From Candidatus Adlerbacteria bacterium (GTDB lineage Bacteria; Patescibacteriota; Minisyncoccia; Phycocordibacterales; SBAW01), in the NCBI GenBank assembly GCA_963749085.1, contig CAVVLG010000003.1, positions 155,380 to 219,379 of the forward strand: a stretch of DNA of 64,000 bases, given 5' to 3'. Below are positions 8,263 to 54,395 of this stretch, one piece after another (position 1 is the first letter of the stretch; every line of letters begins with the position of its first letter). The notes beneath the pieces are model-generated. The model did no database searches, was not told the origin of the DNA, and was given only the letters and a program-made list of their open reading frames with translations. A program made the translations under genes and the position numbers.

Positions 8263-8263
8263 G

Positions 8264-10135: not shown

Positions 10136-10154
10136 CCTATATCGGCCATCAGAT

Positions 10155-10192
10155 ACCCGTCCCGGATTCATTTCGGGACGGGTTCTTTTTTT
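10155..10192 (+). terminator. Rho-independent terminator
   Basis: acccgtcccg...cgggacgggt hairpin plus T9. Confidence 0.7.
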
Positions 10193-12164
10193 AAAAATCT
10201 ACTTTAATAGAATCGGGAATTATATCCTCCTTCTTTTTCGGCGTGATGCCGTGGACTACAAGAATCTTTTCGAACTCCTCGCGCTCAAGTGTTTCAACTT
10301 CGACTAAACGGTGCGCGATGGCATCGAGCGTCTTGCGGTGCGTGGTGATGATGTCAGTTGCTTTTTTGTACGCTTCGTCGATGATACGTTTTACTTCGGT
10401 GTCGATTTCGCCGGATACTTTCTCAGAATATTCTTTGCCATTAACACCGGCGCCAAAAAGTGCATGGCCATTATCGCCTTCAAGCGCGACGGTTCCCATT
10501 TTATCGCTCATGCCCCACCGGGTCACCATGTTGCGCGCGAGGTTAGTTAAGACCTGCAGGTCGTTGGAGGGGCCTGTGGTTATGTCACCAAAAACCATTT
10601 TCTCGGCGACGTAACCCCCGAGGCTCATGGCAATGTCGTCCAGAAATTCCTTTTTGCTTTGCATACGTTTGTCTTCAAACGGAAGTTTCAGGGTATAACC
10701 CGCCGCACGACCGCGGGAGATGATAGAAATTTTGTGCACGGGGTCGGCATACGGCAGGAGCGAGGCCACGAGTGCATGTCCCGCTTCGTGGTAGGCGGTT
10801 ATTTCCTTTTCTTTTTTATTCAACACATGCGATTTCCGCTCGGGACCAAGCATCACCTTCTCAATCGAGCGGATAAGGTCGTATTGCGCGACGGTCTTAC
10901 GGTTTTCGCGCGCCGCCAAAATGGCGCCTTCGTTCATAAGCGAGAAGAGATCGGCGCCGGAGAAGCCGGGGGTGCGCTCCGCGACCACTTCGAGATTTAC
11001 GTCCTCGGCGAACGGTTTCTTGCGCGAGTGAATTTTCAAAATTTCAAGACGATCCTGCCGGTCGGGCAGCTCAATGACGACGCGGCGGTCGAAGCGGCCG
11101 GGACGAAGCAGCGCCGGATCAAGCACGTCGGGTCGGTTAGTTGCCGCCATGACGATAACCTTTTCATTCGGTTCGAATCCGTCCATCTCCACCAGAATTT
11201 GGTTGAGCGTCTGTTCGCGCTCGTCGTTGCCGCCGCCCACACCAGTTCCGCGTACGCGTCCCACTGCGTCTATCTCGTCGACGAAGATGATTGCCGGCGC
11301 GGCGCGTTTGGCGGTCAAGAAAAGATCCCTCACGCGGCTCGCACCAACACCGACAAACATTTCAACGAACTCCGAACCCGAGATGGAAAAAAACGGCACA
11401 CCCGCCTCCCCGGCTACTGCGCGTGCAAGAAGTGTCTTTCCCGTGCCCGGTGCGCCCATGAGCAAAATACCCTTGGGTATGCGCGCGCCGATATCGAGGA
11501 ATTTTTTTGGATTTTTCAGAAAATCTACTATTTCAAGCAACTCTTCTTTCGCTTCTTTGGCTCCTGCCACATCCTTGAAGGTCACGCGCGTACCCGCATC
11601 GTTAGGGTCAATGACGCGCGGTTTGCTTTGGCCGAAGGAGAACGCCTGCATGCCGGCGCCCCGCACTTGCCTCGAGAGATACCAGACGAAAAACGCGATT
11701 AAGAGAAGCGGCGCGGCGAAGGGCGCCAACAACTGGAGCCAGAACTCCCAGCCGCTCTGGCTGACGATATTTATCGTGACCTTGTTCATCTGCGTACTCG
11801 AAACACCGTAGTCATACAGCGTCTGGGTGAGCGGCGTGCCCGGTTCTTTTTGCGAGGTTTTCTCGGTCGAGGAGGCATTGTTGTAGATGACGTCAAGGTC
11901 GTCTCCGTTGACGTTTATGGTCGCCACCTTCCCCGCCTCGACGTCCTGCGCTACTTGCGAGATAGGTATTGCCTGCGGCTGGGGGCCGCCGCTGGTTGCA
12001 AAATAGGTGTAGGCACCCGCCAGAAGCAGGAGAAGGAGGACTGTAGTGGCCAGATTCACCCAGAAAGAATCTCCCTGCGGTAATTTGGGGAGCCCGGGCA
12101 TGTTACGGCGCGGTTTGGGGGGCTTTTTATCCCCCTGTGTTTGCTTATTCGGAGCGTCTGCCAT
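10191..12164 (-). CDS. ftsH: ATP-dependent zinc metalloprotease FtsH
   Basis: 2 TM, AAA Walker [24 protein letters not shown], second region of homology, HEAGHAL zinc motif; start set at MADAPNKQ to avoid overlap with smpB. Confidence 0.9.
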
Positions 12165-12223
12165 TGCGAAAACATCATAACACTTTCTATGTTTTTTGGC
12201 AAAAAAAATGGTAGAGTGGGCGC

Positions 12224-12667
12224 ATGAACCTGGTTGAACACAAAAAAGCACGGTTGGATTATGAAATCCTCGAAGAATTCGAGGCGGGTATCGAATTATT
12301 CGGTCATGAAGTCAAATCTCTGCGTACGCGACAGGGGAAACTCGAAGGTTCTCACGCCATCGTCAGGAACGGTGAGGCATACGTAGTGGGGATGCAAATT
12401 CCACCCTACCAGCCGGCAAACACGCCTGAAAGTTACGATCCGACACGCAGCCGCCGGTTGCTTTTGACCAAGAAGGAATTGGATGAATTAGAGGCGGCCG
12501 AAGGCAAGAAAGGCTTGACAATTGTTCCACTTTCGGTGTACAATAAGGGTTCGAAGTTAAAACTGCGCCTCGCCATAGCGCGCGGCCGTAAGAAGTATGA
12601 CAAGCGCGATGTCTTGAAGAAGCGCGACGCTGAACGTGAGATTGAAAGAACTTTGAAAAATCAGTAG
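12224..12667 (+). CDS. smpB: SsrA-binding protein SmpB
   Basis: Full-length SmpB similarity (GIEL.G.EVKSLR..., C-terminal basic tail). Confidence 0.9.
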   Translation: MNLVEHKKARLDYEILEEFEAGIELFGHEVKSLRTRQGKLEGSHAIVRNGEAYVVGMQIPPYQPANTPESYDPTRSRRLLLTKKELDELEAAEGKKGLTIVPLSVYNKGSKLKLRLAIARGRKKYDKRDVLKKRDAEREIERTLKNQ

Positions 12668-12705
12668 GCCGTCCCGAAGAGCGCACAATCGGTTGCGCGC
12701 TGTTC

Positions 12706-13071
12706 GGGAGTGCAAGGCCTAGACAATACATACGTCTCTCTGCACGCAAGAGGGCAGCGGGGTTCTGCTCTAAAAACTCCAAAGATAACTGGCAAGTCAG
12801 TTCAATCACCGTATGCGGTGAACGGTTTCGCTTTCGCTAACGCCTAAGCGACCGCGCTCGCTTCTCCTCTCCTGAAAGAGAAGGCCGAGTGTTATATCTC
12901 GGGATATAGTTTCGCAAACTGATTCTCTGCGAAATTGAAACTTGGAATCTGCGGCGTAATTCGATTTCGTCCGTTTCATACGAATTATGTCAAAGACCTC
13001 AAAGCGCACTAGCTCTTGTAGACCTGCTTATAGATCTGTATTGCACGAGGGTTCGAATCCCTCCACTTCCA
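12706..13071 (+). ncRNA. ssrA: tmRNA (ssrA), about 366 nt
   Basis: Directly downstream of smpB; 3' tRNA-like T-arm GAGGGTTCGAATCCCTC plus acceptor strand CACTTCC plus discriminator A pairing with 5' GGGAGTG; P2 helix caataca (12724-12730) with tgtattg (13038-13044); in-frame tag ORF ending TAA at 12845-12847, candidate tag GKSVQSPYAVNGFAFANA. Confidence 0.65.
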
Positions 13072-13200
13072 CAAATTCAAAAGCCCTTATTTTTCAAGGC
13101 TTTACAGAGCCAGATGACAGGTGGTTGGAACCGCCGTTTTTGAGGAAATTGTTAATTTAAGCCTTGGAATAAGGAGTTTTTGCGGTTCGAATTCAGTTAC
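13072..13200 (+). repeat. Structured repeat A1 (about 130 nt), first copy, immediately 3' of tmRNA
   Basis: About 85 percent identical to 13731-13858; nested long-range complementarity (cccttattt/aataaggg, caaggct/agcctt) and inner helix with compensatory change. Confidence 0.6.
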
Positions 13201-13242
13201 TTCTATCTCGAGTTTGAATCCATCTCAGCTTTTACGTTAAAA

Positions 13243-13271
13243 TTGACAGCGTAGTCTTTGTATGTTATCTT
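13243..13271 (+). promoter_or_regulatory. Sigma-70-like promoter (TTGACA-17-TATCTT)
   Basis: Consensus -35 with acceptable -10 at 3' end of repeat A1, upstream of ORF 13307. Confidence 0.45.
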
Positions 13272-13306
13272 ACTTGCAGTCTTAGTCCCAAGCAGGAGAA
13301 GTACAG

Positions 13307-13516
13307 ATGAATAATATCACGAGAATGGGTGTGGTCGCTTTGAGTTGGTTCTTGGTGTCCGTCTCTGCCACCTGGGCATTTACAACGCTCATCCCCGGCT
13401 GTCTGCTTGGATATTTCTGTCTAGGCAAGGAGGGAGGAAAGGAACTTACCAGAACAATCGTCCTTTCCCCACTTCTTTGGACAAGAAGGTTCGTTGTATT
13501 GTCGAATAGCAACTAG
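13307..13516 (+). CDS. Small hypothetical membrane protein (69 aa)
   Basis: AGGAGA RBS 8 nt upstream; one predicted TM helix; terminator downstream. Confidence 0.4.
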   Translation: MNNITRMGVVALSWFLVSVSATWAFTTLIPGCLLGYFCLGKEGGKELTRTIVLSPLLWTRRFVVLSNSN

Positions 13517-13548
13517 GGACAATCTTCAAACAACTTGGATCTGATACC

Positions 13549-13590
13549 CCGCGCCATCAGCAATGATAAGCGCGGGTTTTTCTTTTATTT
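13549..13590 (+). terminator. Rho-independent terminator
   Basis: cccgcgcc...gcgcggg stem plus tttttctttt. Confidence 0.6.
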
Positions 13591-13655
13591 GCTTGGCAAC
13601 TTTGCAATGTATAAATGTATATACGTATTACCAAATTGCCAAGGAGTTCTATTTT
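13588..13655 (+). repeat. Repeat B1 (about 65 nt) containing palindrome ATACGTAT flanked by inverted ttggcaa/ttgccaa
   Basis: Second copy at 15826-15885 (cgtatatacgtattaccaaRttgccaaggagtt shared). Confidence 0.5.
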
Positions 13656-13730
13656 GAACAAAATAGAATCACCACAATAGAATATTCACAGAAGCAGTGA
13701 CAAGTCCTAATTCGGACAAGACAGCTCCAC

Positions 13731-13858
13731 AAATCCAAAAGCCCTTATTTTTCAAGGCTCTACAGAGCCAGGTAACGGGTGGTTAGAACCGCTGTTTTTG
13801 AGGAAATCGTTACAATAAGCCTTTAAATAAGGGTTTCATGCGGTTCGACTCCTGTTTT
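13731..13858 (+). repeat. Structured repeat A2, second copy; preceded by a copy of the tmRNA 3'-terminal motif CTCCACAAAT
   Basis: See A1; upstream 13718-13737 gctccacaaatccaaaagccc mirrors tmRNA end ccacttccacaaattcaaaagccc. Confidence 0.6.
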
Positions 13859-13879
13859 CTCTCCTGGTTCAGATTCTAC

Positions 13880-13907
13880 TTGACAGAGGTGAATTTTAGT
13901 GTATAAT
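13880..13907 (+). promoter_or_regulatory. Near-consensus sigma-70 promoter TTGACA-N16-TATAAT
   Basis: Perfect -35 and -10 hexamers 16 nt apart at 3' end of repeat A2, 40 nt upstream of ORF 13950. Confidence 0.6.
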
Positions 13908-13949
13908 TAATATAGGTTCATCGACACCAAAGCACACAGGAGATCTGTC

Positions 13950-14363
13950 ATGGGGTACTACTTCCCGAAAGCAAGGTCTCTGAAAGACCTTGACCTGCAG
14001 CAGCAAGAGCGATACAAAATCCTTCGCTCGACAGGTAGAAATCAACAGCCAGCACTTCTCAGCCGGATCGAAACAGTTGAAAAGCATGCTGGTCCAATCA
14101 CCTCGGGTGAAATCTGGTCAGCTCTCGAAGAGCTTCTCCAAGATGTCTTCGTCACATGGATACTCGCGGGAGAAGATCCTGAGAAAGTCCAGTGGGTCGA
14201 TCCAGAGGATCTGACTGAACCGACACCTCCTCCGACCGAAGAAGAAAAGCTTAAAACACGGGAGTGGTTGGAAAGTTTATCTAAACGACCGGGGTATAGG
14301 ATACCACAACCGAAGGTAACTTTGTGGGGATTGCTCCGGTCATTCATTCACAGAAGTTCCTGA
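13950..14363 (+). CDS. Hypothetical acidic protein (137 aa)
   Basis: AGGAGA RBS; driven by consensus promoter; terminator at 14382-14416. Confidence 0.45.
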   Translation: MGYYFPKARSLKDLDLQQQERYKILRSTGRNQQPALLSRIETVEKHAGPITSGEIWSALEELLQDVFVTWILAGEDPEKVQWVDPEDLTEPTPPPTEEEKLKTREWLESLSKRPGYRIPQPKVTLWGLLRSFIHRSS

Positions 14364-14381
14364 GTCATTGCCGACATACTC

Positions 14382-14416
14382 GCCGCCTTTCGCAAGAGAG
14401 GCGGTTTCTATTTATT
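14382..14416 (+). terminator. Rho-independent terminator
   Basis: gccgcct...aggcggt hairpin plus T-run. Confidence 0.55.
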
Positions 14417-14538
14417 AGTACTTTCTTACCTTAAACAAGTTATAATTCGGACAAAACATCTCCGCCTGCTTGACGATGTTCGAACCGCTTTTGGTGTTAT
14501 GCTGTGAAGAGGTTATTTATTAGTTTCTATTTATTTTT

Positions 14539-14952
14539 ATGGCACTCACCTATTTTCTCGCTCAAGTGATAGGGCTGTATCTATTGATTGTAGGACTCAC
14601 CATGCTCTTTTGGAAAAAGCGCTGGATGAATGTCCTTCACGAGTTTTGCCAAAGCCAAGGTGAAACGCTTAGATATATGCTGGGGATAGTAGCTCTTCCT
14701 TTCGGACTTCTATTGGTCTTAGTACATAACTACTGGAACATGGGGGTGCTCGCATTGGTAGTGACGCTTTTCGGGTGGATAATCTTGCTTAAAAGCATTC
14801 TGGTGTTGTTTGTGTTTTCTCCAGAACAGATGGGCCGCTTAGTCAAAGTTTTTTGGATAGAGCAATGGTGGTATGTCTACGTTGTAATAATGTTAATCAT
14901 TGGCGCGTACTTGACGCATGCCGGGTTTACTCAAACTGGGCTGTTGCACTAG
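14539..14952 (+). CDS. Hypothetical integral membrane protein (4 TM)
   Basis: Highly hydrophobic 137-aa ORF; preceded by TATAAT-TTCGGACAAAACA motif. Confidence 0.4.
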   Translation: MALTYFLAQVIGLYLLIVGLTMLFWKKRWMNVLHEFCQSQGETLRYMLGIVALPFGLLLVLVHNYWNMGVLALVVTLFGWIILLKSILVLFVFSPEQMGRLVKVFWIEQWWYVYVVIMLIIGAYLTHAGFTQTGLLH

Positions 14953-15175
14953 CACACAATCAACTTCCAGCTCCACTCACAACTTTCTAATTCGAACTCT
15001 AAGCTATGCCTCAGTATTTGGGGATTTAGCGGTTTGAATCATTCCGATCGCCTCTCAAGTTCGGTTTGGTTAGAACACTTTTTACGAACGTCGGTTTGAT
15101 AACCTCGTATCGGACATCCAACTATGGGGTGGAAAGGTGATAGAATAAAAGGATTATAAATCTTTTAAAATATGT

Positions 15176-15643
15176 ATGAATAAACGAGTGACAATAGCTG
15201 CGAATATACTTCGCCTGCTCCTAGGGTGGTTTATGTTCGTCGACGGTCTGCAAATCCTGCTCACTCCAAATTGGAGCGCGAGCAGTTTCCTTCTTGGCGC
15301 AAAAACCTTCCCCGCTTTCTATGCATGGTTCGCTCTGCCGAGCAACGGATGGTGGGTCAATCCTCTGAATGCGTGGGGTATCACACTCGTCGGGGTCGCA
15401 CTACTTCTCGGAGTCGGGACCCGGCCTGCGGCGTGGGCTGGGGCGGCACTCATGATTCTCTATTACTTCCCGCACTATGCGTTCCCGATCGTGCCAAATG
15501 GGTTCATCGTTGAAGATCATATTATCTACGCTTCGGCATTTGTGCTCGTTGCCGTCTTTCCGGCCGCGCAATCCTTCGGTCTCGCCCGATACCTTCGCGA
15601 AACGTTCTTGGAGCGGATACCGGTCGTGAGTGCATTACTATAG
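15176..15643 (+). CDS. DoxX-family membrane protein
   Basis: LLRLLLGWFMF.DG..IL 4-TM DoxX-like profile. Confidence 0.5.
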   Translation: MNKRVTIAANILRLLLGWFMFVDGLQILLTPNWSASSFLLGAKTFPAFYAWFALPSNGWWVNPLNAWGITLVGVALLLGVGTRPAAWAGAALMILYYFPHYAFPIVPNGFIVEDHIIYASAFVLVAVFPAAQSFGLARYLRETFLERIPVVSALL

Positions 15644-15792
15644 GTACGGCCCGCAACACGTTTTCAGATGGAATCTTCCATTAAGGGTGGTCTCCACGAC
15701 CCATGGTCGTCCAAGCCCGAGAACATCGACGGCGGAACGACTCTCCTCGAAGGCGCCGGCTTAGGGTGACACTACCCAACGCCAGCACAAAG

Positions 15793-15820
15793 CCCCGCGC
15801 AAATGCGGGGTTATTTTTTA
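15793..15820 (+). terminator. Rho-independent terminator
   Basis: ccccgcgcaaatgcgggg plus ttatttttt. Confidence 0.7.
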
Positions 15821-15825
15821 CTCTT

Positions 15826-15885
15826 TTTACTTAGCAACTTAGCAACGTATATACGTATTACCAAGTTGCCAAGGAGTTATAATTT
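15826..15885 (+). repeat. Repeat B2 (copy of 13588-13655) followed by TATAAT-TTGGACAAGACAACTCC motif
   Basis: See B1. Confidence 0.5.
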
Positions 15886-15971
15886 GGACAAGACAACTCC
15901 ACATTGCTGAAAAATCCTCCTAGCTGGGAGGATTTTTCTATTTACGAAACCGTGCGATAACCTATTTCTAT

Positions 15972-16103
15972 CTATGGTGTCGTTGAAGTAGTGGCTGGGG
16001 CTGTGGTCGCACTTGAAGACGAGCTCGAGTACCACCACCACCACCCAAGACCAATGACGACAACTACGATGACCACAATCCACACAATGGTTGACGTTTT
16101 CAT
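15972..16103 (-). CDS. Candidate 43-aa single-TM peptide MKTSTIVWIVVIVVVVIGLGWWWWYSSSSSATTAPATTSTTP (below ORF-track size cutoff)
   Basis: Open frame with ATG; hydrophobic helix then WWWW and Ser/Thr-rich tail; weak RBS. Confidence 0.25.
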   Translation of the reverse strand: MKTSTIVWIVVIVVVVIGLGWWWWYSSSSSSATTAPATTSTTP

Positions 16104-16211
16104 ACTCTTAATAATTAACTGATACCATCGTAAGCATAGCATGGAATTTGTGCGGTAAAGCCATCCAAGCGGGAAAAACCCTTTAAACCCTGAGGGGTGT
16201 AGAATAAGGGG

Positions 16212-16421
16212 GTGCTTTTTTCCTTCCTATTCATATGGGGCTCAGTATTTTCGGTTATTGCGGGTGCGATAGCGTTCCTTATTTCCTACAAGGAAATGGT
16301 GCATCATTATGTGCAAAAAAAAGAGCCGCTCAAACAAGCCTCACAGACCGGCATCCTCACCTTCCTATTTTTCATGGCGATAACGATCGCACTGGCATTC
16401 GGCTTGCCTTCCCTGTTCTAA
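16212..16421 (+). CDS. Small 2-TM membrane protein
   Basis: Hydrophobic 69-aa ORF directly upstream of VIT-family gene. Confidence 0.35.
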   Translation: MLFSFLFIWGSVFSVIAGAIAFLISYKEMVHHYVQKKEPLKQASQTGILTFLFFMAITIALAFGLPSLF

Positions 16422-16439
16422 TTCCAATCAATACTTATC

Positions 16440-16928
16440 ATGAAAGAAGTGTACATACGAAATATCATCTTCGGCATCGCCGACAGTTTAGTGTCGACCG
16501 TGGGGCTTCTCGCAGGCATTGACGTTGCGGGTAGCACCCATTCCACCATTATTTTGACCGGTATAGTGTACGCATTTGTCGAATCTCTTTCGATGGCGAT
16601 GGGGAGCTTTCTTTCCGAAGAAGCGACCGAGGAGTTCGAAACTAAAAACGAACACACTTCGACGGCACCGACTGTTGCCGGAGTCGTCATGTTTCTATCA
16701 TTTCTTCTTGCATCGTTCATTCCCCTCTTTCCGTACGTGATTACTGCGTCCTTCTTTGCATTATGGATCTCCATAGGACTTTCGCTTTTCACGCTCTTCA
16801 TAGTTGGTATCGTGATGGCAAAACTTTCAAACATTAAGCTCCTGCGACACGCGGTCAAAATGGTGCTGCTGGGCGGCGCGGCAATACTCGTCGGCGTCAT
16901 CGTCGGCAGATACATCCACATCCAGTAG
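16440..16928 (+). CDS. VIT1/CCC1-family (vacuolar iron transporter-like) membrane protein
   Basis: GIADSLVSTVGLLAG motif and 5-TM profile. Confidence 0.55.
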   Translation: MKEVYIRNIIFGIADSLVSTVGLLAGIDVAGSTHSTIILTGIVYAFVESLSMAMGSFLSEEATEEFETKNEHTSTAPTVAGVVMFLSFLLASFIPLFPYVITASFFALWISIGLSLFTLFIVGIVMAKLSNIKLLRHAVKMVLLGGAAILVGVIVGRYIHIQ

Positions 16929-28621: not shown

Positions 28622-29017
28622 TTACCAAATCTCAAACAACGCTTCGCCGCCGACGCGTTTTTCATGTGCTTCTTTGCCGGAAATAACTCCGCTCGGGGTT
28701 GAGAGCACGAGAAGTCCATGGCCGCGTTTGACCGGTTTGATGTCGTGAACGCCCATATACATGCGGCGCGAGGGTTTTGAAATTCTTTTCACACCCGAGA
28801 TCGCCGGGCGACCATTTTTATAAGAAAGTATTATTGAAAGCGAATTTCCGCCAAGCGGATTCTTAACCGTTTTCAATTCGCTGACATAGCCTTCTTTGGC
28901 GAGAATTTCCGCGATGGCAAGCTTCATGCGCGAGTAGGGCGCCGACACGCGGGACTTGCCCGCCATGGAAGCGTTCTGTAAACGGATAAGCAAATCTGCT
29001 ATTGGGTCGGTTACCAT
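28622..29017 (-). CDS. rpsH: 30S ribosomal protein S8
   Basis: [16 protein letters not shown]. Confidence 0.85.
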
Positions 29018-29196
29018 GATGATTTTCGGATGCCCGGTATAAGCCCCTCGTTGGCAGCTTCTCTGAAGCAGGCGCGGCACATGCCAAAATCGCGCATGAA
29101 GGCGCGTTTGCGCCCGCAGCGGAAACAGCGTCGAACCACCCGGGATTTAAATTTGGGTGGGCGGTTTGACCTTGCAACTGTTGATTTTTTTGCCAT
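29011..29196 (-). CDS. rpsZ: 30S ribosomal protein S14, Zn-ribbon type Z (61 aa)
   Basis: [23 protein letters not shown]. Confidence 0.85.
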
Positions 29197-29236
29197 GTAT
29201 ATGATTCTGTTGGTTTCCCCCGTTTGGGGGACCTTG

Positions 29237-29263
29237 CAGAAAAAAGGAGCCCCGACTGGGCTC
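29237..29263 (-). terminator. Rho-independent terminator closing the island's minus-strand transcript
   Basis: Minus-strand gagcccagtcggggctc followed by cttttttct; lies between island and rpsZ start. Confidence 0.65.
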
Positions 29264-29328
29264 ACAAGATACTACGCGAATTGGATTTAGAAGTCAAATT
29301 ACCTTATAGATTGCAGCGTAGAAGAAGG

Positions 29329-30042
29329 TCAAAATGGTATTTGAGCTTGTACACGATACGACAATATATTCGTGACTGGCACGCACGTACCCATCAGTCT
29401 GGTGCACAATATCCTTTTTCCGACGTATCCATGCAGGTTAAAGATAAAGGCATTGGCGATGCTTTCGGCAACGATGAGTGCAAAAATCGTTGCGGCTGGC
29501 AGAAGCCATTCGTCAGCATAAACAGCATCACGCGCCAGACGGTTGTCGGCTCTGAATTTTTTCAGGCCGCGCAGACGCCTACGCTCGACGAGCCGGCTCG
29601 CCTCCAGCGTCGCGCCGTGAGCAAGCTTTGCCTCTGCAACCGAGGCACGTGCGTCGGCAACCGCGAGTGTCACGTCGAGCTGGCGCGGCATGCGCGCCCG
29701 GATTTTCTCGTCGGCGTCGTGGAGCTGACTTGCGAGAAACTGCTTAAGTAAGTTGGCGCCCGACTGGATTTCAGCCACGATTTGCCGCTGCGGATCGTTC
29801 AGATCGGCATCGTCTTTGTGCGGACGGTTCTCGACGCCATCGTCTCGCGCCCGCTCGACCAAGCGCAATGACCTGGCCAAGCGCTCAAAGGCGGGACGGA
29901 GGTGGTCATTGACCTCCGGTAGCCAGCGAGTACGCGTCCATGTCGGAGATTTGGAGAAGGTATTCATCGAGCCGCGGAAGTTCATGGCAGTCACCTTAAT
30001 TATTGGTTTGAGCGTGGCCAGTTGTCGCCTGGCTGAAGACAT
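29329..30042 (-). CDS. Hypothetical charged helical protein with C-terminal TM (tail-anchored); contains direct repeat DR1 in its 3' end
   Basis: 237-aa ORF in GC-rich segment; overlapping plus-strand ORF 29224-29751 judged spurious; coding status uncertain. Confidence 0.35.
   Translation of the reverse strand: MSSARRQLATLKPIIKVTAMNFRGSMNTFSKSPTWTRTRWLPEVNDHLRPAFERLARSLRLVERARDDGVENRPHKDDADLNDPQRQIVAEIQSGANLLKQFLASQLHDADEKIRARMPRQLDVTLAVADARASVAEAKLAHGATLEASRLVERRRLRGLKKFRADNRLARDAVYADEWLLPAATIFALIVAESIANAFIFNLHGYVGKRILCTRLMGTCVPVTNILSYRVQAQIPF
29400..29437. repeat. 38-bp perfect direct repeat DR1 (tggtgcacaatatcctttttccgacgtatccatgcagg)
   Basis: Identical copy at 33679-33716; partial copy ggtgcacaata..tccgacg at 33579-33601. 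Confidence 0.9.
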
Positions 30043-30187
30043 CCATGCTTTCGCTGGGTGGTGAGCACAAACTCTTCGCTAAGAAGGTGTCTAAGCGGGA
30101 TCTGTTTTTTGAACAAAGGCATTGCCGGTGCACTAAATGTGAAGAACGGCGTTTCAGGGTTCGAACGCTTCTCGACTACTTGCGCTG

Positions 30188-31249
30188 ATGTGTGGCCGAA
30201 GCTTCGGATTTTTGAGCGCCCGGCGCAGCGTCATTGAATCTTTCGATCGAGAAGGCTATGTCCGCTTACGCGAAGTGGTTGCTCAGAACCCCGAAATTCG
30301 AGTTGCAGGCTTGGCGCAGGGCGGTGGGTGTCTGAAAAAAAGTGCGCTGATATCAACCGAGAAATGGGCGGGTGGGGAGATGGTCATCGAGCGGAAGGCC
30401 GAAAATTTCAGGTTTTTCCATCCGCGGGAGCCCTGGGGTAAAGGCGGGACTGATTATGTCCAGGTGCATTGTCGTCTGGACGATTTATACGGAATGACTG
30501 GACCGGACGCTGAAACAAATAAAGGGCTCTATAACGCGGCAAAGAGTGAAGGCAATTTTAGGGCCGCATACGAGATAATAGTTAGGCATCGCTCCGAGGA
30601 AAAGTTGAAGGCTCTGAAAGAGGTTATTGCCACGTTGAAGACGCCTGCGCTTTTCGTTTATCCACGGAAGCTGGATTTTGGTGACTCGGGCCGCACATTG
30701 GACCCGGAGAGGCCTACGAACGCCTTGCCGGTGACGCTTACCCGGTTCGTAAGCGCGCGAGTAGGCGGAGAGATATGCAAGGACATAATCCAGATGAGGA
30801 TAAGAAAGCGGACGACTCTCAATCGTCTAATACGCTTTCTTTATCAGCCGGCTTTTAAGGGCCGGGTCATTCCTGGCAGGCGATATGTTCTTGTGGACGA
30901 TGTCATTTCATCGGGGGCGCTATTCGCCTCTCTTCGAAGTCACATCGTGAAGGGCGGCGGCCTTGTCATCGGCATGACAGCGCTTGCGCATGTATCAGGT
31001 AGAGATCAGAAATTGGCGATTTCAAGGGATTCGCTGCAGGCAATGAGGATCGAATTTGGCGAAAAGATTGATGCTTTCTGGAACGGGAAGTTCGGGCACG
31101 GAATTGAGCACCTTACCGACCAAGAAGCAAAGTACCTCTTGGGTCGCTGGCGCTCGCAGCATCAGAGCATTCTGTCGGGTTCTCAGCTGCTTGAATGCCT
31201 TGCTGGCGAGATCGAGCATATTCAAATAGCACACTCCAAATATTCGTAG
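30188..31249 (+). CDS. Phosphoribosyltransferase (PRTase type I) domain protein with about 230-aa uncharacterised N-terminal region
   Basis: RRYVLVDDVISSGALFASL PRPP-binding motif; start codon uncertain (no obvious RBS). Confidence 0.55.
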   Translation: MCGRSFGFLSARRSVIESFDREGYVRLREVVAQNPEIRVAGLAQGGGCLKKSALISTEKWAGGEMVIERKAENFRFFHPREPWGKGGTDYVQVHCRLDDLYGMTGPDAETNKGLYNAAKSEGNFRAAYEIIVRHRSEEKLKALKEVIATLKTPALFVYPRKLDFGDSGRTLDPERPTNALPVTLTRFVSARVGGEICKDIIQMRIRKRTTLNRLIRFLYQPAFKGRVIPGRRYVLVDDVISSGALFASLRSHIVKGGGLVIGMTALAHVSGRDQKLAISRDSLQAMRIEFGEKIDAFWNGKFGHGIEHLTDQEAKYLLGRWRSQHQSILSGSQLLECLAGEIEHIQIAHSKYS

Positions 31250-31297
31250 ATCGCAGTATTTTGCCTTATAATTCATGCTTTTTCATGCTCCCTTGAC

Positions 31298-31332
31298 AAT
31301 TGTACTGTATTTGATAGTATATCCAAAGTTGT
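31298..31332 (+). promoter_or_regulatory. Promoter (TTGACA-16-TAGTAT) overlapped by repeated TTGTACT(G/T)TA / GTAC palindromic operator-like sites
   Basis: cccttgacaattgtactgtatttgatagtatatccaaagttgtactttacagcagtac upstream of ORF 31375. Confidence 0.45.
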
Positions 31333-31374
31333 ACTTTACAGCAGTACTTCGTCAAATCTCCAGTCCGATCCTCG

Positions 31375-31671
31375 GTGCCTGACAAATCGGGCATCGACAA
31401 CTCGGAATGGAGGTTGCTAATGGCACATTCACAATGTTGCAGCGCAAACTCGCCTGACGCGTCACGCGCTGATATCGAAGACGAAGCTTGTCGTCGGCTG
31501 ATGATTTCGCTCTACGGCAGTGAAGCCGAGGCGAGGCTTGTCGCTGAGGCCCTCTTACGGGACATAACGCCCGAAGAGGAGGAACTGATCGAGCGGCGGT
31601 ACAATGCCGGCGACCAAATCGCTGACCAAATTGTGCGCGAGCTTGGTTTCCCTCCCGAACCGGAAAGATAA
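31375..31671 (+). CDS. Small HTH protein, sigma-70 region-4-like (98 aa)
   Basis: ITPEEEELIERRYNAGDQIADQIVREL resembles region 4.2 HTH; C-terminal 55 aa duplicated at N-terminus of ORF 32704. Confidence 0.5.
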   Translation: MPDKSGIDNSEWRLLMAHSQCCSANSPDASRADIEDEACRRLMISLYGSEAEARLVAEALLRDITPEEEELIERRYNAGDQIADQIVRELGFPPEPER

Positions 31672-31715
31672 GGTGAGGGTGGCCGAGCGAGCAATTGGTA
31701 AGCGACTTCGACTTA

Positions 31716-31745
31716 AGACCCCGTAAATGCGGGGTCTTTTTGTAT
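31716..31745 (+). terminator. Rho-independent terminator
   Basis: aagaccccgtaaatgcggggtcttttt. Confidence 0.75.
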
Positions 31746-31855
31746 GCGCTTTATTTTTGGGTATTCTTCAAAAAACGGTGCTGGTTTGGACACTCTGGGT
31801 ACATAGGGTCGCTTAGCCTATCATAGTGGAGTAGAACTCTAGCACGAGAACGGCA

Positions 31856-32707
31856 ATGATACGACTGCAGCAAGCTAGAGTCTCGAAACGCGGTCCAATT
31901 CCGATGGAACGTCGGCGACCATGCGACTATTTAAAAGCACTGACCCCGGCGCATATGAGGGACGTTCGTGAGCATTTAAAAGCAATATACGCGGTGTATT
32001 CAGGGCGTCAGTTGGCGGACGATTGTGCCCAAGTAGCAATACTGTTCCTGTGGAAATACCCCTATGACTTAGAAATCGGTCCGTCCATGGGGGATGAACG
32101 CGATGCCGCTTGGTACGTAGCTGTACATAATTCGCTTCTGCGCTTCGCCAAGTCTCGCGAATTTAGAGGGTCGGTATTGCGGACCGTTTATAAGGGCAAC
32201 TTTAGCAAAGTGTCCCAAACAGAATCCGAAGGCGAACAAGACCCAGATCCAAATTGGGATACGAGCATTCGATGGTTTGAGGGTAATCTCCATTGGGAAA
32301 AGGTTTTCAAAAGTTTCCGAGCATTTTTGGCGGAGCAACCGGATATCGATCCCCTAGAGATTCAGTTGATCGACCAGCTCCACAAAAACGCCGTGCGTGA
32401 GACGATAGATGAAGGAATGGAAGATGTTTTTCGAGGCGAGAGCTTTCAAGTCGTTCACCAGCCGCTGCTAGAAGCATTGCAAGAGCATTTTCGAGCAACA
32501 GGCTGGAATATTGAAATGGTGCGAGTAACGCTCGCGAAAATTCGCCGTCATGCGATCCAATATCGGGAATCTCTAACCACTGGTGACCTTTTAGAATTTC
32601 ATGGACCCCTTCGAACTCAAGCAGATAGCCAATCGTCTATCGAGAAGAAGAAATCCAATGCCGAGCTTTGTCAGCAGACAACATCGACCAAAAGGCCAGT
32701 ATCATGA
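31856..32707 (+). CDS. Hypothetical protein with ECF-sigma region-2-like N-terminal part
   Basis: QLADDCAQVAILFLWKY and AWYVAVHNSLLRFAKSRE resemble sigma-70 regions 2.2 and 2.4; ATGA-overlapped with next gene. Confidence 0.4.
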   Translation: MIRLQQARVSKRGPIPMERRRPCDYLKALTPAHMRDVREHLKAIYAVYSGRQLADDCAQVAILFLWKYPYDLEIGPSMGDERDAAWYVAVHNSLLRFAKSREFRGSVLRTVYKGNFSKVSQTESEGEQDPDPNWDTSIRWFEGNLHWEKVFKSFRAFLAEQPDIDPLEIQLIDQLHKNAVRETIDEGMEDVFRGESFQVVHQPLLEALQEHFRATGWNIEMVRVTLAKIRRHAIQYRESLTTGDLLEFHGPLRTQADSQSSIEKKKSNAELCQQTTSTKRPVS

Positions 32708-33570
32708 CCAAAAAACCCACCCCTGTGAGCGGAACGACAAACGAAGACGAAGCTTGTCGTCGGCTGATGATTTCGCTCTACGGCAGTGAAGCCGAGGCGA
32801 GGCTTGTCGCTGAAGCCCTCTTACGGGACATAACGCCAGAAGAGGAGGAACTGATCGAGCGGCGGTACAATGCCGGCGACCAAATCGCTGACCAAATTGT
32901 GCGCGAAGCTGGATTAGAGTCAAAAGTGCCGGCCGCGATGGGTTATGACGTTGATATCCCGTTCACCGAAGAACAGGAAAAGGAATTTGTCTCATTCGTG
33001 GAAGCAGTTTATCGCCGAGCAGAAGATCAACAAGATCGCACTGCACCTTTAGAGCGAGTTCCAGCTGGCGTCCTGGGCGCTCTGGCAGAACTCGGGCATG
33101 TTGCAGCGGCTAAAGTGGTGTCCGTAGCCGATGTAGTTGGGGAATGGCTATCTTTGCCTTTGCAGGCCTTTAATACGATCGACCTCGCGTACGGGAAGCC
33201 TGCTTTAGCGACTGCCGAGGTCGCTAGCGAACAGGTGCTGCATAAAGTCGGCAAGCGTGTTTTTCTGGCTGACCTAGGCGCAGAAAGCTCGCAGCTAGCG
33301 GAGAGCAAATGGCGATCTGCTGAGATAAGATTGATATTGTCAATTAATTCGCGTCGCGAAATTGATGACGTGAGCATCACGGCTCGTGGAAGTGAACTCG
33401 ATAAATTGACGAATGAAATTCTTGATGTGCGCCTGAGGGATCGAGCGGGTAACAAGCGGACCATTGCTCTTTCTCGGGAACGGCTGCAAGGCTACATGCG
33501 AGGTAAATCACTTTCCGGCGATCTCGCAGAATTAGAGCTACTGGTTCATGTCGACCATCGACCAACGTAA
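32704..33570 (+). CDS. Hypothetical protein with N-terminal sigma-region-4-like HTH (duplicated module)
   Basis: N-terminal 55 aa identical to C-terminus of ORF 31375 (165 nt, 2 mismatches). Confidence 0.5.
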   Translation: MTKKPTPVSGTTNEDEACRRLMISLYGSEAEARLVAEALLRDITPEEEELIERRYNAGDQIADQIVREAGLESKVPAAMGYDVDIPFTEEQEKEFVSFVEAVYRRAEDQQDRTAPLERVPAGVLGALAELGHVAAAKVVSVADVVGEWLSLPLQAFNTIDLAYGKPALATAEVASEQVLHKVGKRVFLADLGAESSQLAESKWRSAEIRLILSINSRREIDDVSITARGSELDKLTNEILDVRLRDRAGNKRTIALSRERLQGYMRGKSLSGDLAELELLVHVDHRPT

Positions 33571-33678
33571 GCTACCGGGGTGCACAATAGAACCTCCGAC
33601 GCTGATCGGCGCTATCGCTCGCGAACTCGAACGTGAGTTGAATGAAGCGATTCCCGCGGAGCTGAAAAGTTGTCGGCT

Positions 33679-33716
33679 TGGTGCACAATATCCTTTTTCC
33701 GACGTATCCATGCAGG
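33679..33716. repeat. 38-bp perfect direct repeat DR2
   Basis: Identical to 29400-29437; 17 nt from cas2 stop. Confidence 0.9.
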
Positions 33717-33733
33717 AGCCAGTAAATTAAGGC

Positions 33734-34045
33734 TTATTTGACTATCCGCACAATCTCATACGCGGGCTTGCCCGTGATGGCCTGTAGCGTCTCATGCCCT
33801 ATGCTAGCATCCTTTGTGCACGACGCACACATAGCGAACGAATAATGCGAATCAGTCTTTCCGCAGAACAGAGTCTTCAGTTTGCTGTCGAGCGACACAC
33901 GTTCCTCCCGATATAAGGTCCCAATATACAGCTTTTTATGTAGCGGCCTGAGCCCAAAATCCTTGCACCAATTCTCAGCCTGTCGCGTCCTGCGCCAGTT
34001 ACGCGTTTGCCAGGATACGACTACCGTAAATAGCAGATTGTTCAT
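33734..34045 (-). CDS. cas2: Putative CRISPR-associated endoribonuclease Cas2
   Basis: Immediately follows cas1 (6-nt gap); about 100 aa; N-terminal LLFTVVVS..RRTRQ pattern like E. coli-type Cas2 (MLVVVTENVPPRLRGRL). Confidence 0.5.
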   Translation of the reverse strand: MNNLLFTVVVSWQTRNWRRTRQAENWCKDFGLRPLHKKLYIGTLYREERVSLDSKLKTLFCGKTDSHYSFAMCASCTKDASIGHETLQAITGKPAYEIVRIVK

Positions 34046-34051
34046 AGTGTG

Positions 34052-35062
34052 TTAGAGCAGCAAGGAGAAATCAAATGCTGCATATGTGTCCTGCTTTTCC
34101 AAGAAATAGCGGGCAAGCGCCCTGCTTTGCTCCTCGATAATTACTTGGAGGGTGCGTTGCTTGCCTTTCCATTTTACCGTTTTATTAAGCTGTTTGAATA
34201 CTGCCTCAACTACCTTGGCCTTCCCCTCGGGAGAGAGCCGGTACTCCGTGTTGTTTACTTTCTCAAAATCGCCCCGCCTGCCCAGCTTTTTTTCGAGAAA
34301 GAGCGGAAAGATTGCCGAATCCACCACTGGCACGCGGAATTCTTCGACCATGTCCAAAACTAGGGCCGGTTTGCCATAACGCTCGGAGTGATACAAGCCA
34401 AGGTACGGGTCAAGGCCGATATAGAGGCAGGCACGTTCTACTTCGTTGTAGAGAATGCCGTAGCCGTAGTTGATAGCACTGTTGAATTTGTCGCGGCCTT
34501 GCGGGATGCGACCCGGAAACTTATGTAATTGCCTAAGCGATTGCCAATACTTTTCTGCAATGAATCCTTCGATGCCGAACAACTGCTCGCGAGCCTTGTC
34601 GCTCGGAGGAATGGTATTGATGGTCTTGGAGAGCGTCTCGGCCTGAACGATTCCCTTTTCAAAGTCAGCTCCGCACTTGGCCATCAAGAATTTCAAATAG
34701 GTGATTTGGTTTTTGCATTTTCCCGCGATGAAGCTTTTGGCGAGCGAGAGCGCCTGCGGAAGGTCAGTCGCGACCTCGAGCTGGGCGCGTCGAGTCGTAG
34801 CTAACCCTCGCGCATCACTGCCAAAAATCCTGCCGACAGGTTTGCCGAAGGATCCGAGATACACGATGTCAACTTCGTGCTCAAGGGCAAGCTTTACGGC
34901 GTGGGTCGAAATGGAAGAGGGCCGAAGAATGACGATTTTGCTGAGCCTGCGTATCGGATATTCTTTGGTAATCCGCTTCTTGGTCTTCGAGGGCAGGCGC
35001 AAGACAAGGCGCTCACCTGTCGAACCTATATACGTGCCGTAGGTGTCGATGAGGAGGTCCAT
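34052..35062 (-). CDS. cas1: CRISPR-associated endonuclease Cas1 (start trimmed to MDLLIDTYG)
   Basis: NSAINYGYGILYNEVERACLYIGLDPYLGLYH...LVLDMVEEFRVPVVD matches Cas1 catalytic His/Asp signature; upstream part of listed ORF overlaps rplE and is discarded. Confidence 0.85.
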   Translation of the reverse strand: MDLLIDTYGTYIGSTGERLVLRLPSKTKKRITKEYPIRRLSKIVILRPSSISTHAVKLALEHEVDIVYLGSFGKPVGRIFGSDARGLATTRRAQLEVATDLPQALSLAKSFIAGKCKNQITYLKFLMAKCGADFEKGIVQAETLSKTINTIPPSDKAREQLFGIEGFIAEKYWQSLRQLHKFPGRIPQGRDKFNSAINYGYGILYNEVERACLYIGLDPYLGLYHSERYGKPALVLDMVEEFRVPVVDSAIFPLFLEKKLGRRGDFEKVNNTEYRLSPEGKAKVVEAVFKQLNKTVKWKGKQRTLQVIIEEQSRALARYFLEKQDTYAAFDFSLLL

Positions 35063-35083
35063 GGGGAATATATAACAGGCGGG

Positions 35084-35110
35084 TAATAAAAAAGGATACC
35101 AGAAGTATCC
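35084..35110 (-). terminator. Rho-independent terminator after rplE, upstream of cas1
   Basis: Minus-strand ggatacuucugguaucc followed by U6. Confidence 0.65.
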
Positions 35111-35153
35111 GAGCAGAGACGATACCAACCTTGGAGAGAGAAGTAAAGAGTTT

Positions 35154-35690
35154 CTACTTTTTGAACGGGAACCCGAGGTGTGCGAGATACTCCTCGGCTT
35201 CTTTTTTATTTTTCGCAGTGGTGACGATAGTCGTCGCCATACCGAACACGTCCTTAAGTTCTTCATCGGTGGTCTCTGGAAAAACAATATGTTCTTTGAT
35301 GCCAAGTGTATAGTTGCCCATTTCATCAATGGCACCTTTTGAGATTCCTTTGAAGTCTTTAGTGCGCGGGAGCGCCACATGGATGAGACGGTTCAAAAAA
35401 TCTTCGGCACGCTTGCCGCGCAGTGTTACTTGGTATCCTACTTTGTCGCCAATGCGCGTTTTGTACGTCGCAATGGACTTTTTGGCTCCTCGCGTGGCTG
35501 GTTTTTGTCCTGTTATCTTTGCCAAGCGGTCGGCAACCAATTCAACCTTCGGTTTATCCTTGGCCATCTTGCCCACACCAACTGAAATAACCACTTTTTC
35601 TATACGCGGTACTTGCATGGCGTTTTTCCATTTGAATTCGGTTTTCAAAGCGCTGAAAGCCTTTTTCTGTTTGACTTGAATAAGTTCCAT
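35154..35690 (-). CDS. rplE: 50S ribosomal protein L5
   Basis: Full-length L5 similarity. Confidence 0.9.
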   Translation of the reverse strand: MELIQVKQKKAFSALKTEFKWKNAMQVPRIEKVVISVGVGKMAKDKPKVELVADRLAKITGQKPATRGAKKSIATYKTRIGDKVGYQVTLRGKRAEDFLNRLIHVALPRTKDFKGISKGAIDEMGNYTLGIKEHIVFPETTDEELKDVFGMATTIVTTAKNKKEAEEYLAHLGFPFKK

Positions 35691-53646: not shown

Positions 53647-54395
53647 CGTGTGAGAATGCCCATAAACGAATCCAGCTGCGCGCTTGCGTGTCCCACCAAA
53701 AAACCGTTTACATTCCCTTCGGTGATGAGGACGTGGGCATTGTCGGGCTCAACCGAGCCCCCATAGAGTAGGGGGACGCGCATTGCAATCTTGCGCTCGA
53801 ACATATCCGTCAACGTTTTTTTAATAAAGATACTCATCTCACGCACGTCATGCGGCTTCATCGCGTCCTCGGCACTTTTGCCTATAGCCCAGACCGGCTC
53901 GTAGGCGATGACCAGTTTCGAAGGAGATAGTTTCGGAATCTGTTTGAGAGCCGAGGAGAGTTGCGCTTCAACAAATGAAAAGTGGGCGCCTCCGGCGTCG
54001 CGCTCTGCCTCACCGACGCATAAAATGGAGGTAAGGCCCGCAGCGGCGACCGAACGGAGCTCCTCGTGGACCATAGCATTGGACTCTCCCGCCGCGCGAC
54101 GCTCGGAATGGCCCACAATGACGAAAGAGGCTCCTGCTTGTTTGAGCATCGGGGCAGACACTTCGCCTGTGTGCTTCTCTCCAGCAAAAGAAGAAGCCGC
54201 TTGGGCGCCGACTTTTATCGACGAGCCTTTAAGCGCCGTCGCGACCGCGGGTATAAGAGGATGCGGAGGAGCCAGTACGACGTCAACGCCGTTGAATGCG
54301 CGGCCCTTTTTGCGCAACGCAGCGGCAAATGCCCTTGCCTCCTCGGGAGACTCTATGTACATCTTCCAATTCCCGACCACGAGGCGCTTGGACAT
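53637..54395 (-). CDS. tpiA: Triosephosphate isomerase
   Basis: VGNWKM, VGHSERR, AYEPVWAIG. Confidence 0.85.
   Translation of the reverse strand: MSKRLVVGNWKMYIESPEEARAFAAALRKKGRAFNGVDVVLAPPHPLIPAVATALKGSSIKVGAQAASSFAGEKHTGEVSAPMLKQAGASFVIVGHSERRAAGESNAMVHEELRSVAAAGLTSILCVGEAERDAGGAHFSFVEAQLSSALKQIPKLSPSKLVIAYEPVWAIGKSAEDAMKPHDVREMSIFIKKTLTDMFERKIAMRVPLLYGGSVEPDNAHVLITEGNVNGFLVGHASAQLDSFMGILTRCK

Follow-up and report, generated by a model that had tools for sequence, protein, structure and literature searches.

In a 64,000-nucleotide stretch of contig CAVVLG010000003.1 from a Candidatus Adlerbacteria bacterium (the window), the genes for ribosomal proteins L5 (rplE) and S14 (rpsZ), both on the minus strand and both confirmed by Pfam, are separated by 5,957 bp (29197-35153). 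This island, whose size had been correctly put at about 6 kb in a first-pass annotation of the window, carries a cas1-cas2 module and, next to it, a plasmid-like DNA fragment of 4.24 kb that lies between two identical copies of a CRISPR-type repeat. We think it rather probable that the Cas1-Cas2 proteins of this clade use the repeat nearest the leader as the site at which long DNA fragments are integrated, and that a second copy of the repeat results. Such long-fragment integration is proposed because of the leader, the identical repeats, the polarity of the arrangement, the exact borders of the inserts, the genes cut at those borders, the lack of a recombinase and the selection that acts on Cas1 and Cas2. 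To our knowledge, Cas1-Cas2 integrases insert only spacers of about 30-40 bp, and the only Cas1-family enzymes that we know to move kilobase DNA are the casposases, with their own inverted-repeat ends.

Perfect 38-bp direct repeats had been described as framing the whole island. The repeats are present (29400-29437 and 33679-33716; two copies in the window and none in shuffled sequences), but they frame the 4.24-kb block only, with cas1-cas2 outside it and just upstream of the first copy, which starts 17 nt past the cas2-like gene. The extent of the repeat unit is defined by locus L169, which encodes the closest Cas1 relative (94% identical). The window and L169 share 89% DNA identity from the cas1 ATG exactly to the last base of the repeat and are unrelated beyond it; because the homology stops at the last base of the unit, the true repeat unit is 37 bp and the 38th base is coincidental. 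A homologous element of about 37 nt lies 15-80 nt 3' of cas2 at 34 distinct loci, with more diverged repeats at two others, and the family consensus is CCTGCA-N8-GTCGCAMAA-N6-TTGTGCAAC. A 24-nt leader is conserved immediately 5' of the first repeat (30 loci), its final 4 nt reading GGCY in 26-30 of the 30, and is missing before later copies. Regular CRISPR arrays (37-nt repeats of the form GTTGCAG...ATGCAAC, with a period of 72-76) were found only beside Cas1 proteins 38-39% identical to that of the window, and their repeats are equal in length to the window-family repeat and have termini in common with it (xTGCA...TGCAAC). On these sequence features, the 38-bp repeat is classed as a CRISPR-type repeat belonging to cas1-cas2. 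Tandem Repeats Finder (TRF) and k-mer scans revealed no regular array in the window or at any locus whose Cas1 is at least 43% identical, and the exact 38-bp repeat had no match in IMG/VR.

The earlier placement of cas1 and cas2 on the strand of the ribosomal protein genes holds firmly for cas1, which begins 91 nt past rplE, beyond a modest hairpin, in the same orientation as these genes. For cas2 the support is weaker, the PADLOC match being accompanied by a Pfam score under the cutoff (0.086, 13.5 bits against 23.8) and by no match in NCBIfam. A partner gene is conserved 3' of cas1 in all relatives, and the homologues at loci L130 and L117 match Cas2b at 1.3e-13 and 1e-7; the 103-aa gene is probably a genuine though divergent Cas2. 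The closest solved structure to the window Cas1 is 4n06 (1.3e-32), with the casposase 6opm third-best (6.7e-25), and residues E165, H225, D237 and E240 are invariant across 30 relatives and align with the E/H/D residues of 4n06. In comparison with L169, the ratio of nonsynonymous to synonymous substitution rates (dN/dS) is 0.028 for cas1 and 0.065 for cas2, and both genes are, judged by these ratios, under strong purifying selection.

This Cas1 has 1,386 homologues at E<=1e-20, many of them 60-94% identical and from Patescibacteria. Those that are 79-82% identical occur as cas1-cas2 pairs beside tpiA-pgk (L086-L091) or dnaN-dnaA (L092), and within 10 kb of these pairs neither an effector gene nor, among the called genes, a recombinase was found. 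In L169, 25 nt separate cas1 from a fragment of a divergently oriented Xer-like tyrosine recombinase gene (1-456, minus strand) upstream of it. Even among close relatives, therefore, the cas1-cas2-repeat module is found at differing sites, and it may sometimes travel with a recombinase. The window has its own pgk-tpiA pair, beside a T2SSE ATPase gene (52672-55945, minus strand), and unlike the tpiA site in L086 and L089 it has no cas module and no repeat. At the more distant locus L148 (Cas1 38-39% identical), the order is cas1-cas2-cas4-cas12f, with PADLOC matches to Cas12f/Cas14b at 1.5e-172 and to Cas4b at 3.1e-27, and the orphan modules appear from this resemblance to derive from a V-F-like (Cas12f/Cas14b) adaptation module. 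Neither Cas12f nor Cas4, nor any other effector, was found among the island's open reading frames (ORFs) or beside the modules of those relatives whose flanks were examined; among the 44 other ORFs of the window no cas effector was included in the 25 of 66 Pfam families listed as most frequent. A search for inverted repeats or target duplications bounding the module itself found none.

The DNA between the two repeats has one ORF on the minus strand and four on the plus strand. The minus-strand ORF had been taken for a gene with a tail anchor, and it proves to be the severed 5' end of a gene for a membrane protein of about 500 aa: the 237-aa ORF as listed reads on through repeat 2 to 29329, so that what looked like a tail comes from the repeat and from the chromosomal sequence beyond it. 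Its 109 homologues, mostly of 470-550 aa, match through the N-terminal 180 or so residues only and always up to query residue 201; in the alignment, homology ends between ANAFIF and NLHGY, and about 300 residues are absent from the window copy. The remaining genes, encoding proteins of 353, 98, 283 and 300 aa, are syntenic with four consecutive genes of L167 at 47-59% identity. This agrees with the earlier suggestion that foreign DNA had entered between rplE and rpsZ, and the donor of the window cargo was, by its gene content, apparently a plasmid- or ICE-like (integrative and conjugative element) element of bacteria of the candidate phyla radiation (CPR). L167 is a 22-kb Logan contig that also has, within 1-16644, Replic_Relax, a 1042-aa protein, Ppx-GppA and a transglycosylase-like gene, and it is itself a candidate plasmid or ICE of CPR bacteria. 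Owing to a direct duplication of 174 nt (31476-31649 and 32742-32915, 97% identity), a domain of about 58 residues is found both in the 98-aa ORF and at the start of the 300-aa ORF, and the same paralogy is seen between the 77-aa and 259-aa genes of L167.

The functions first proposed for these genes have not fared well. The 98-, 283- and 300-aa ORFs had been read as helix-turn-helix genes resembling sigma regions 2 and 4, and neither they nor the truncated gene gave anything significant in Pfam, NCBIfam, PHROGs or PADLOC, the PADLOC value of 0.011 for the 300-aa ORF being non-significant. The supposed phosphoribosyltransferase (PRTase) domain of the 353-aa protein amounts to a weak, motif-level match to NCBIfam PRTase and ShosT; its stronger match, phrog_22413, is a family of unknown function. 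This protein has nine homologues, and an AlphaFold2 model built with them reached a mean confidence (pLDDT) of 54.6, too poor for use. It has no relative in IMG/VR, and tblastn against phages returned three weak partial matches at 32-36% identity. The insert as a whole had no blastn match in PLSDB, it has no terminal inverted repeats, and no recombinase or integrase, replication or polymerase gene was recognised in it by Pfam, NCBIfam and PADLOC scans. Nor does its composition set it apart as had been claimed: GC content is 0.516 in the island, 0.524 in the insert, 0.512 in the window and 0.520-0.536 in the ribosomal protein flanks, and a GC content as high or higher is found in 22% of windows of the same size. 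A tetranucleotide profile, the other compositional check that had been suggested, places the distance of the insert only in the top 7%, which is mildly atypical.

The same architecture recurs elsewhere in the family. A census of 36 related loci included 30 with at least 100 nt past the first repeat, and not one of these 30 has a normal-sized spacer after it. At six loci (the window and five others), identical copies of the locus's own repeat stand 220-7,709 bp apart (Table 1). In all six, duplication has affected the same 37 bp (CYTGCA...TGCRAY), the first copy always follows the leader, and each locus has its own sequence variant of the repeat. The cargoes of the six loci are unrelated, no motif or inverted repeat is common to the insert ends, and the orientation of the cargo relative to cas1-cas2 is inconsistent, being antisense in the window and sense in L089 and L094.

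Genes are severed at the repeat borders of other loci as well. The last ORF of the L130 insert consists of codons 1-529 of a uvrA gene of about 950 codons, cut at the repeat; the fragment aligns to residues 22-514 of the 972-residue UvrA 2r6f (4.2e-165), and the remaining cargo, a PGA_cap capsule protein and a PG-binding/Ig protein, is also chromosomal in type. In L094, the Pfam match of a Mutator-family transposase at the distal repeat reaches profile position 270 of 379 and stops at the repeat border. A further kind of junction is found in L122 (2150-2270), an 88%-identical allele of L096/L099, in which cas1 is joined at about codon 234 to the leader-side border of an intact repeat (37/37 identical), and similarly in L163 (6020-6132) and L165 (1440-1543), in which cas1 is joined to the repeat at codon 99. 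The cut genes and the cas1-repeat fusions argue that breakage and joining occur exactly at repeat borders, where Cas1-Cas2 acts in spacer integration. The fusions themselves may have been left by Cas1 reactions that went astray or by deletions that the repeat mediated. On either side, L086 and L089 are collinear, and the difference between them is confined to the stretch between cas2 and the conserved downstream genes. In L086 (11378-13409) this stretch has a single repeat followed by a 475-aa minus-strand gene that is missing from L089, and no second repeat; it may be an older insert that has lost its distal repeat.

Table 1. Features of the rplE-rpsZ region of the window, and repeat spacings at the six loci with duplicated repeats.
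Feature	Position	Strand	Evidence and remarks
rpsZ (zinc-type S14, 61 aa)	29011..29196	-	Pfam Ribosomal_S14 1.2e-19; first gene of downstream unit
Conserved structured rpsZ 5' leader	29197..29263	-	Hairpin and U-run (29263-29247), then UUCUG...CAGAA stem around hairpin
Promoter-like TTGACT-17-TAGTAT for rpsZ	29269..29297	-	Comparable TTGACT...TATATT/TAGTAT upstream of rpsZ in relatives
Repeat 2 (37 bp)	29401..29437	-	Same sequence as repeat 1; no leader motif
4,242-bp insert between identical repeats	29438..33679	.	Plasmid-like DNA fragment
5' fragment (codons 1-201) of ~500-aa membrane-protein gene	29438..30042	-	Severed at junction of insert and repeat 2
353-aa protein with weak PRPP-binding (phosphoribosyl pyrophosphate; PRTase-like) motif	30188..31249	+	phrog_22413 8.4e-27; NCBIfam PRTase 4.9e-4; ShosT 7.8e-3
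98-aa ORF	31375..31671	+	Homologue in L167; no family match
283-aa ORF	31856..32707	+	47% identical to L167 7195-7971; no Pfam, NCBIfam, PHROG or PADLOC match
300-aa ORF	32668..33570	+	N-terminal half 49% identical to L167 259-aa protein; no significant family match
Repeat 1 (37 bp, CCTGCATGGATACGTCGGAAAAAGGATATTGTGCACC), leader-proximal	33680..33716	-	Homology with L169 stops at its final base
Leader end, 24 nt abutting repeat 1	33717..33740	-	Overlaps cas2 stop; terminates in GGCT
cas2-like gene (103 aa), divergent	33734..34045	-	PADLOC Cas2b 1.1e-6
cas1 (336 aa)	34052..35062	-	Pfam Cas_Cas1 5.9e-67; TIGR00287 4.9e-68, 229.6 bits against cutoff of 71.7
Terminator-like hairpin GGATACTTCTGGTATCC and T-run 3' of rplE	35085..35110	-	Terminator scan; junction also in L001
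rplE (ribosomal protein L5)	35154..35690	-	Pfam Ribosomal_L5 1.2e-18, L5_C 2.6e-31; last gene of upstream unit
Window, repeat pair			Repeat spacing 4,279 bp
L089/L090/L095, three repeat copies			Cas1 identity 79%; spacing 1,299 + 1,519 bp; one structure from several metagenome or metagenome-assembled genome (MAG) records
L094, repeat pair			Cas1 identity 79%; spacing 7,709 bp
L110, repeat pair			Cas1 identity 61%; spacing 220 bp; insert 183 bp
L117, repeat pair			Cas1 identity 58%; spacing 586 bp; insert ~550 bp
L130, repeat pair			Cas1 identity 43%; spacing 4,796 bp

The spc cluster is among the most conserved gene arrays (PMC8046335), and the first-pass annotation had regarded the L5-S14 junction as an inviolable site. 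A check of synteny does not sustain this view for the present lineage. Relatives were collected as 80 species-level matches by L5 protein, every one of them assigned to Candidatus Adlerbacteria, Paceibacteria or Patescibacteria. A single contig holds both genes in 65 of these, and here rplE and rpsZ lie 73-3,946 bp apart (median 617), the gap being at least 300 bp in 49 and at least 1 kb in 29, and the longest gaps are about 3.9 kb (e.g. L027 10529-14473 and L034 10529-14474). S14 was not found within 10 kb in L012, L065, L069, L079 and L082. The gaps hold unrelated accessory genes, with matches to DsbA/thioredoxin, GT2, ROK, IMP-cyclohydrolase-like, MerR, HicB, Phd and lytic transglycosylase families and a majority of ORFs without known family, and no integrase was seen among them (L006-L085). 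Even behind the same S14 protein sequence the gaps differ, L003-L005 having either a ribbon-helix-helix (RHH)-YafQ toxin pair or two small ORFs. cas1 occurs in the gap of none of the 80 relatives, and the gap cargo is therefore specific to the present genome.

The terminators annotated at both ends of the island are present as terminator-like hairpins with T-runs on the minus strand (35110-35094 and 29263-29247). The second of these belongs to a conserved region upstream of rpsZ, where a promoter-like site and a leader of the form GCCC-N4-GGGCUCCUUUUUUCUG ... CAGAAUCAUAAC are common to relatives, the hairpin and T-run motif appearing in 31 of 69 scanned regions. An RNAalifold consensus of 21 leader sequences has 14 pairs, of which five have compensatory changes. 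A UUCUG/CAGAA stem encloses an GGUGCCGC...GCGAGGCAAACC hairpin, and a third hairpin, CUCCC/GGGAG, is often present in relatives; examples include L003 5540-5712, L024 9184-9289 and about 25 other loci, the window having a compact version. At gathering thresholds, Rfam gave no match in the rpsZ leader or the island, and its only matches in the window were a tmRNA (12706-13074, plus strand) and a tRNA (8264-8337, minus strand). The leader may be an undescribed autoregulatory leader of ribosomal proteins (S8/S14?) or an attenuator. The terminator-like hairpin after rplE, together with the promoter and leader belonging to rpsZ itself, argues that the spc operon was already divided into two transcription units in this lineage. 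Comparison among relatives shows that the gap between the two units is permissive and accumulates accessory DNA in Adlerbacteria and related Paceibacteria. Homologous recombination can exchange hotspots that lie between conserved core genes, and competence genes are present in CPR bacteria; recombination of this kind and competence would account for the turnover of the gap. The "invariant" L5-S14 junction is, in this large bacterial lineage, a persistent hotspot, and the structured leader before rpsZ had not been described.

Integration of a long fragment at this locus can be modelled in a few steps. The permissive gap hosts cas1, the divergent cas2, the leader and one 37-bp CRISPR-type repeat, without cas4. 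The Cas1-Cas2 integrase would attach a long fragment by its two 3' ends to the two borders of the repeat beside the leader, and gap repair would then duplicate this repeat. The chemistry would be that of spacer acquisition minus the usual length ruler of about 35 bp, and in that respect it would resemble the reaction of casposases, which show that Cas1-family enzymes are able to integrate kilobase DNA. Cas4 is the prespacer trimmer, and Cas2 is part of the length ruler in characterised complexes; the missing Cas4 and the divergent Cas2 would be in keeping with a less strict demand on length. The anatomy, its recurrence across the family, the exact 37-bp duplication, the polarity of the leader, the genes cut at repeat borders and the purifying selection on cas1 and cas2 are observed; that Cas1-Cas2 is the catalyst, and that the cell benefits in any way, is what we infer. 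The host might gain by gene capture or by keeping an effector-independent record of invading DNA, or it might gain nothing from an activity that is selfish or relict.

Other routes to the same arrangement deserve consideration. A circular plasmid or virus bearing the repeat (a "solitary repeat unit") could have undergone recombination at the chromosomal copy, whether homologous or catalysed by a tyrosine recombinase of the kind encoded by the Xer-like gene of L169, so that the whole circle was inserted and Cas1-Cas2 was a bystander. Such an event yields the same architecture of an insert between two identical repeats, and the relation of the cargo to plasmid-like L167, the location of the Xer-like gene 25 nt upstream of the L169 cas1 and the breaks of Logan unitigs at both repeats, which are compatible with a free circle, are all in its favour. 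However, an intact replicon would not be expected to begin inside a gene, as the window insert does (201 of about 500 codons), or to stop within the housekeeping gene uvrA and carry chromosomal-type genes, as the L130 insert does. The repeat copies match the diverged variant of each locus, and every donor would need the exact variant of its recipient. Given that neither a replication gene nor a recombinase was recognised in the 4.2-kb insert, that no recombinase is called within 10 kb in L086-L092 and that the repeat is absent from IMG/VR, we regard circle insertion as unlikely. An artefact of assembly, in which the real order would be cas2, repeat and rpsZ leader and the 4.24-kb piece would come from another molecule or organism sharing the 38 bp, strikes us as quite improbable. 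The Logan k=31 assembly of ERR12036785 does break inside both repeats, no independent contig spans repeat 2 to rpsZ, and the mildly atypical tetranucleotide usage of the insert (top 7%) could be read in this way. Yet chance is not expected to give an unrelated molecule 38 bp that match a lineage-specific CRISPR-type repeat perfectly (none in shuffles), the architecture recurs at five other loci from other samples and assemblers (with the L089/L090/L095 structure in several metagenome or MAG records), and any circle would be an excision product of the same integration. An independent Logan assembly (contig L001) reproduces the order L14-L24-L5-hairpin-cas1-cas2 and ends inside the repeat.

A mini-array of two repeats with a spacer of about 36 bp, later invaded by a transposable element, would leave the same 37-bp repeat borders, and a Mutator-family transposase fragment does lie beside the distal repeat of L094. 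We give this possibility very little credence: an intact short spacer is found in none of 30 loci, whereas long inserts are found in six, the inserts of L110 (183 bp) and L117 (about 550 bp) are too small for such elements, the window insert has no terminal inverted repeats, target-site duplications or transposase, and gene cuts exactly at the repeat border leave no room for spacer remnants. The first-pass annotation had also raised a functional coupling of the island genes to transcription of the ribosomal operon, one form of which would be growth-linked expression of cas1-cas2 by read-through from the ribosomal protein promoter. The co-orientation of cas1-cas2 with the ribosomal protein genes, 91 nt past rplE and behind only a modest hairpin, is compatible with coupling, and nothing beyond this co-orientation was found to point to it. 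Cas1 relatives of 79-94% identity reside at unrelated sites (tpiA, dnaN, the Xer-like gene), cas1 is in the gap of 0/80 relatives, gap cargo is unrelated between genomes and all but one of the five cargo ORFs lie on the other strand, all of which makes coupling highly improbable.

The integration of long fragments by Cas1-Cas2 has its own difficulties, and the following points weigh against it. We know of no biochemical evidence for kilobase integration by any Cas1-Cas2, and characterised CRISPR integrases measure prespacer length. Most loci have a single repeat, so integration must be rare or inserts must often be lost. The Cas2 is very divergent, falling under the Pfam threshold. The cargo ORFs of L089 seem complete and are co-oriented with cas1-cas2, and so look more like cassettes than like random fragments. 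At the right end of the window insert, a 60-aa ORF that enters repeat 1 has no homologues and no significant similarity to the 1042-aa protein of L167, and no cut gene could be shown at that end. The Xer-like gene beside cas1 in L169 is a reminder that a tyrosine recombinase could act on the repeat. Logan unitigs break at both repeats, the junction of repeat 2 with rpsZ rests on one MAG assembly, and short reads give one and the same assembly graph for the integrated form and for an empty site plus a 4.28-kb circle. The negative results on effectors and regular arrays in the present genome cover the 64-kb window only. In the literature searched, neither kilobase inserts in Cas1-Cas2 arrays nor a hotspot between rplE and rpsZ in CPR bacteria was found described, an absence that is not proof of novelty.

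If Cas1-Cas2 does integrate long fragments, this clade would show that CRISPR adaptation can lose its length ruler, it would offer a living model for the proposed transition from casposons to CRISPR, and it would reveal a new way in which CPR bacteria acquire genes. Practical interest would also attach to the enzyme, as an integrase that inserts long DNA sequence-specifically. We suggest more tentatively, and with somewhat less than even confidence, that the effector-less Cas1-Cas2 clade in Paceibacteria is a general DNA-capture platform that builds arrays of gene-bearing segments. Such a platform would take up fragments of hundreds to thousands of bp from plasmids and chromosomes, and it could be viewed as a Cas1-based analogue of the integron or as an evolutionary intermediate between casposons and CRISPR. 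Bacteria with tiny genomes would thereby gain a route to acquire genes from imported DNA, or to archive such DNA. CPR bacteria mostly lack CRISPR-Cas according to Burstein 2016, as cited in PMC12455944.

The rplE-rpsZ gap resembles other chromosomal integration hotspots in having conserved flanking genes, a length and content that vary among relatives and no resident integrase; unlike them, it lies inside an operon that is elsewhere highly conserved (PMC8046335), with a lineage-specific rpsZ promoter and structured leader. The locus within it agrees with a CRISPR adaptation module in its Cas1, whose catalytic-type residues are conserved, in its probable Cas2 and in a leader-repeat junction with a repeat of CRISPR length, and yet it cannot be assigned to CRISPR arrays, type V-F systems, casposons, integrons or self-integrating elements. 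Integrative elements with att sites, such as a prophage or ICE, are a poor match: no integrase was found, the gene at the end of the insert breaks off after 201 of about 500 codons, and the duplication is a CRISPR-type repeat that occurs at six loci.

Casposons have in common with this locus a Cas1-family enzyme tied to kilobase integration and to duplication of the target. They differ in that the window Cas1 is encoded outside the repeat-bounded segment, no inverted repeats mark the insert ends and no PolB or other polymerase match is present; moreover, the duplication is a 37-bp CRISPR repeat rather than the 14-15 bp of casposons, a probable Cas2 and a leader are present, and the cargo differs from locus to locus. 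The likeness to integrons lies in a fixed platform beside an integrase gene, which gathers unrelated gene-bearing segments with a repeated site between them in a polar array, and L089, with two cargo segments whose ORFs are co-oriented with the integrase genes, is the closest parallel. Here, however, Cas1-Cas2 takes the place of a tyrosine recombinase (the island ORFs gave no recombinase match, and the Xer-like fragment is found only in L169), identical direct repeats take the place of diverse imperfect palindromic attC sites, and the segments include genes truncated at the borders instead of discrete promoterless ORFs.

An ordinary CRISPR array has regular spacers of about 25-50 bp, as against the repeat spacings of 220-7,709 bp seen here. 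A type V-F system would have Cas12f and usually cas4 beside cas1-cas2 and the array, as in the distant L148, whereas neither of these, nor any other effector, was found in the window (outside the island, among the 25 most frequent of 66 Pfam families) or in the examined flanks of its relatives. The present modules also depart from the type V-F adaptation module in their highly divergent Cas2, in having no short regular spacers at the 30 loci with enough downstream sequence, and in inserts of 183 bp to 7.7 kb that comprise whole and truncated genes and chromosomal-type DNA (uvrA). They agree with that module in a Cas1 with catalytic-type residues, an adjacent probable Cas2 homologue, a leader that abuts the first repeat, a 37-bp repeat of the same length and termini as that of L148, and a repeat copied exactly on both sides of the insert.

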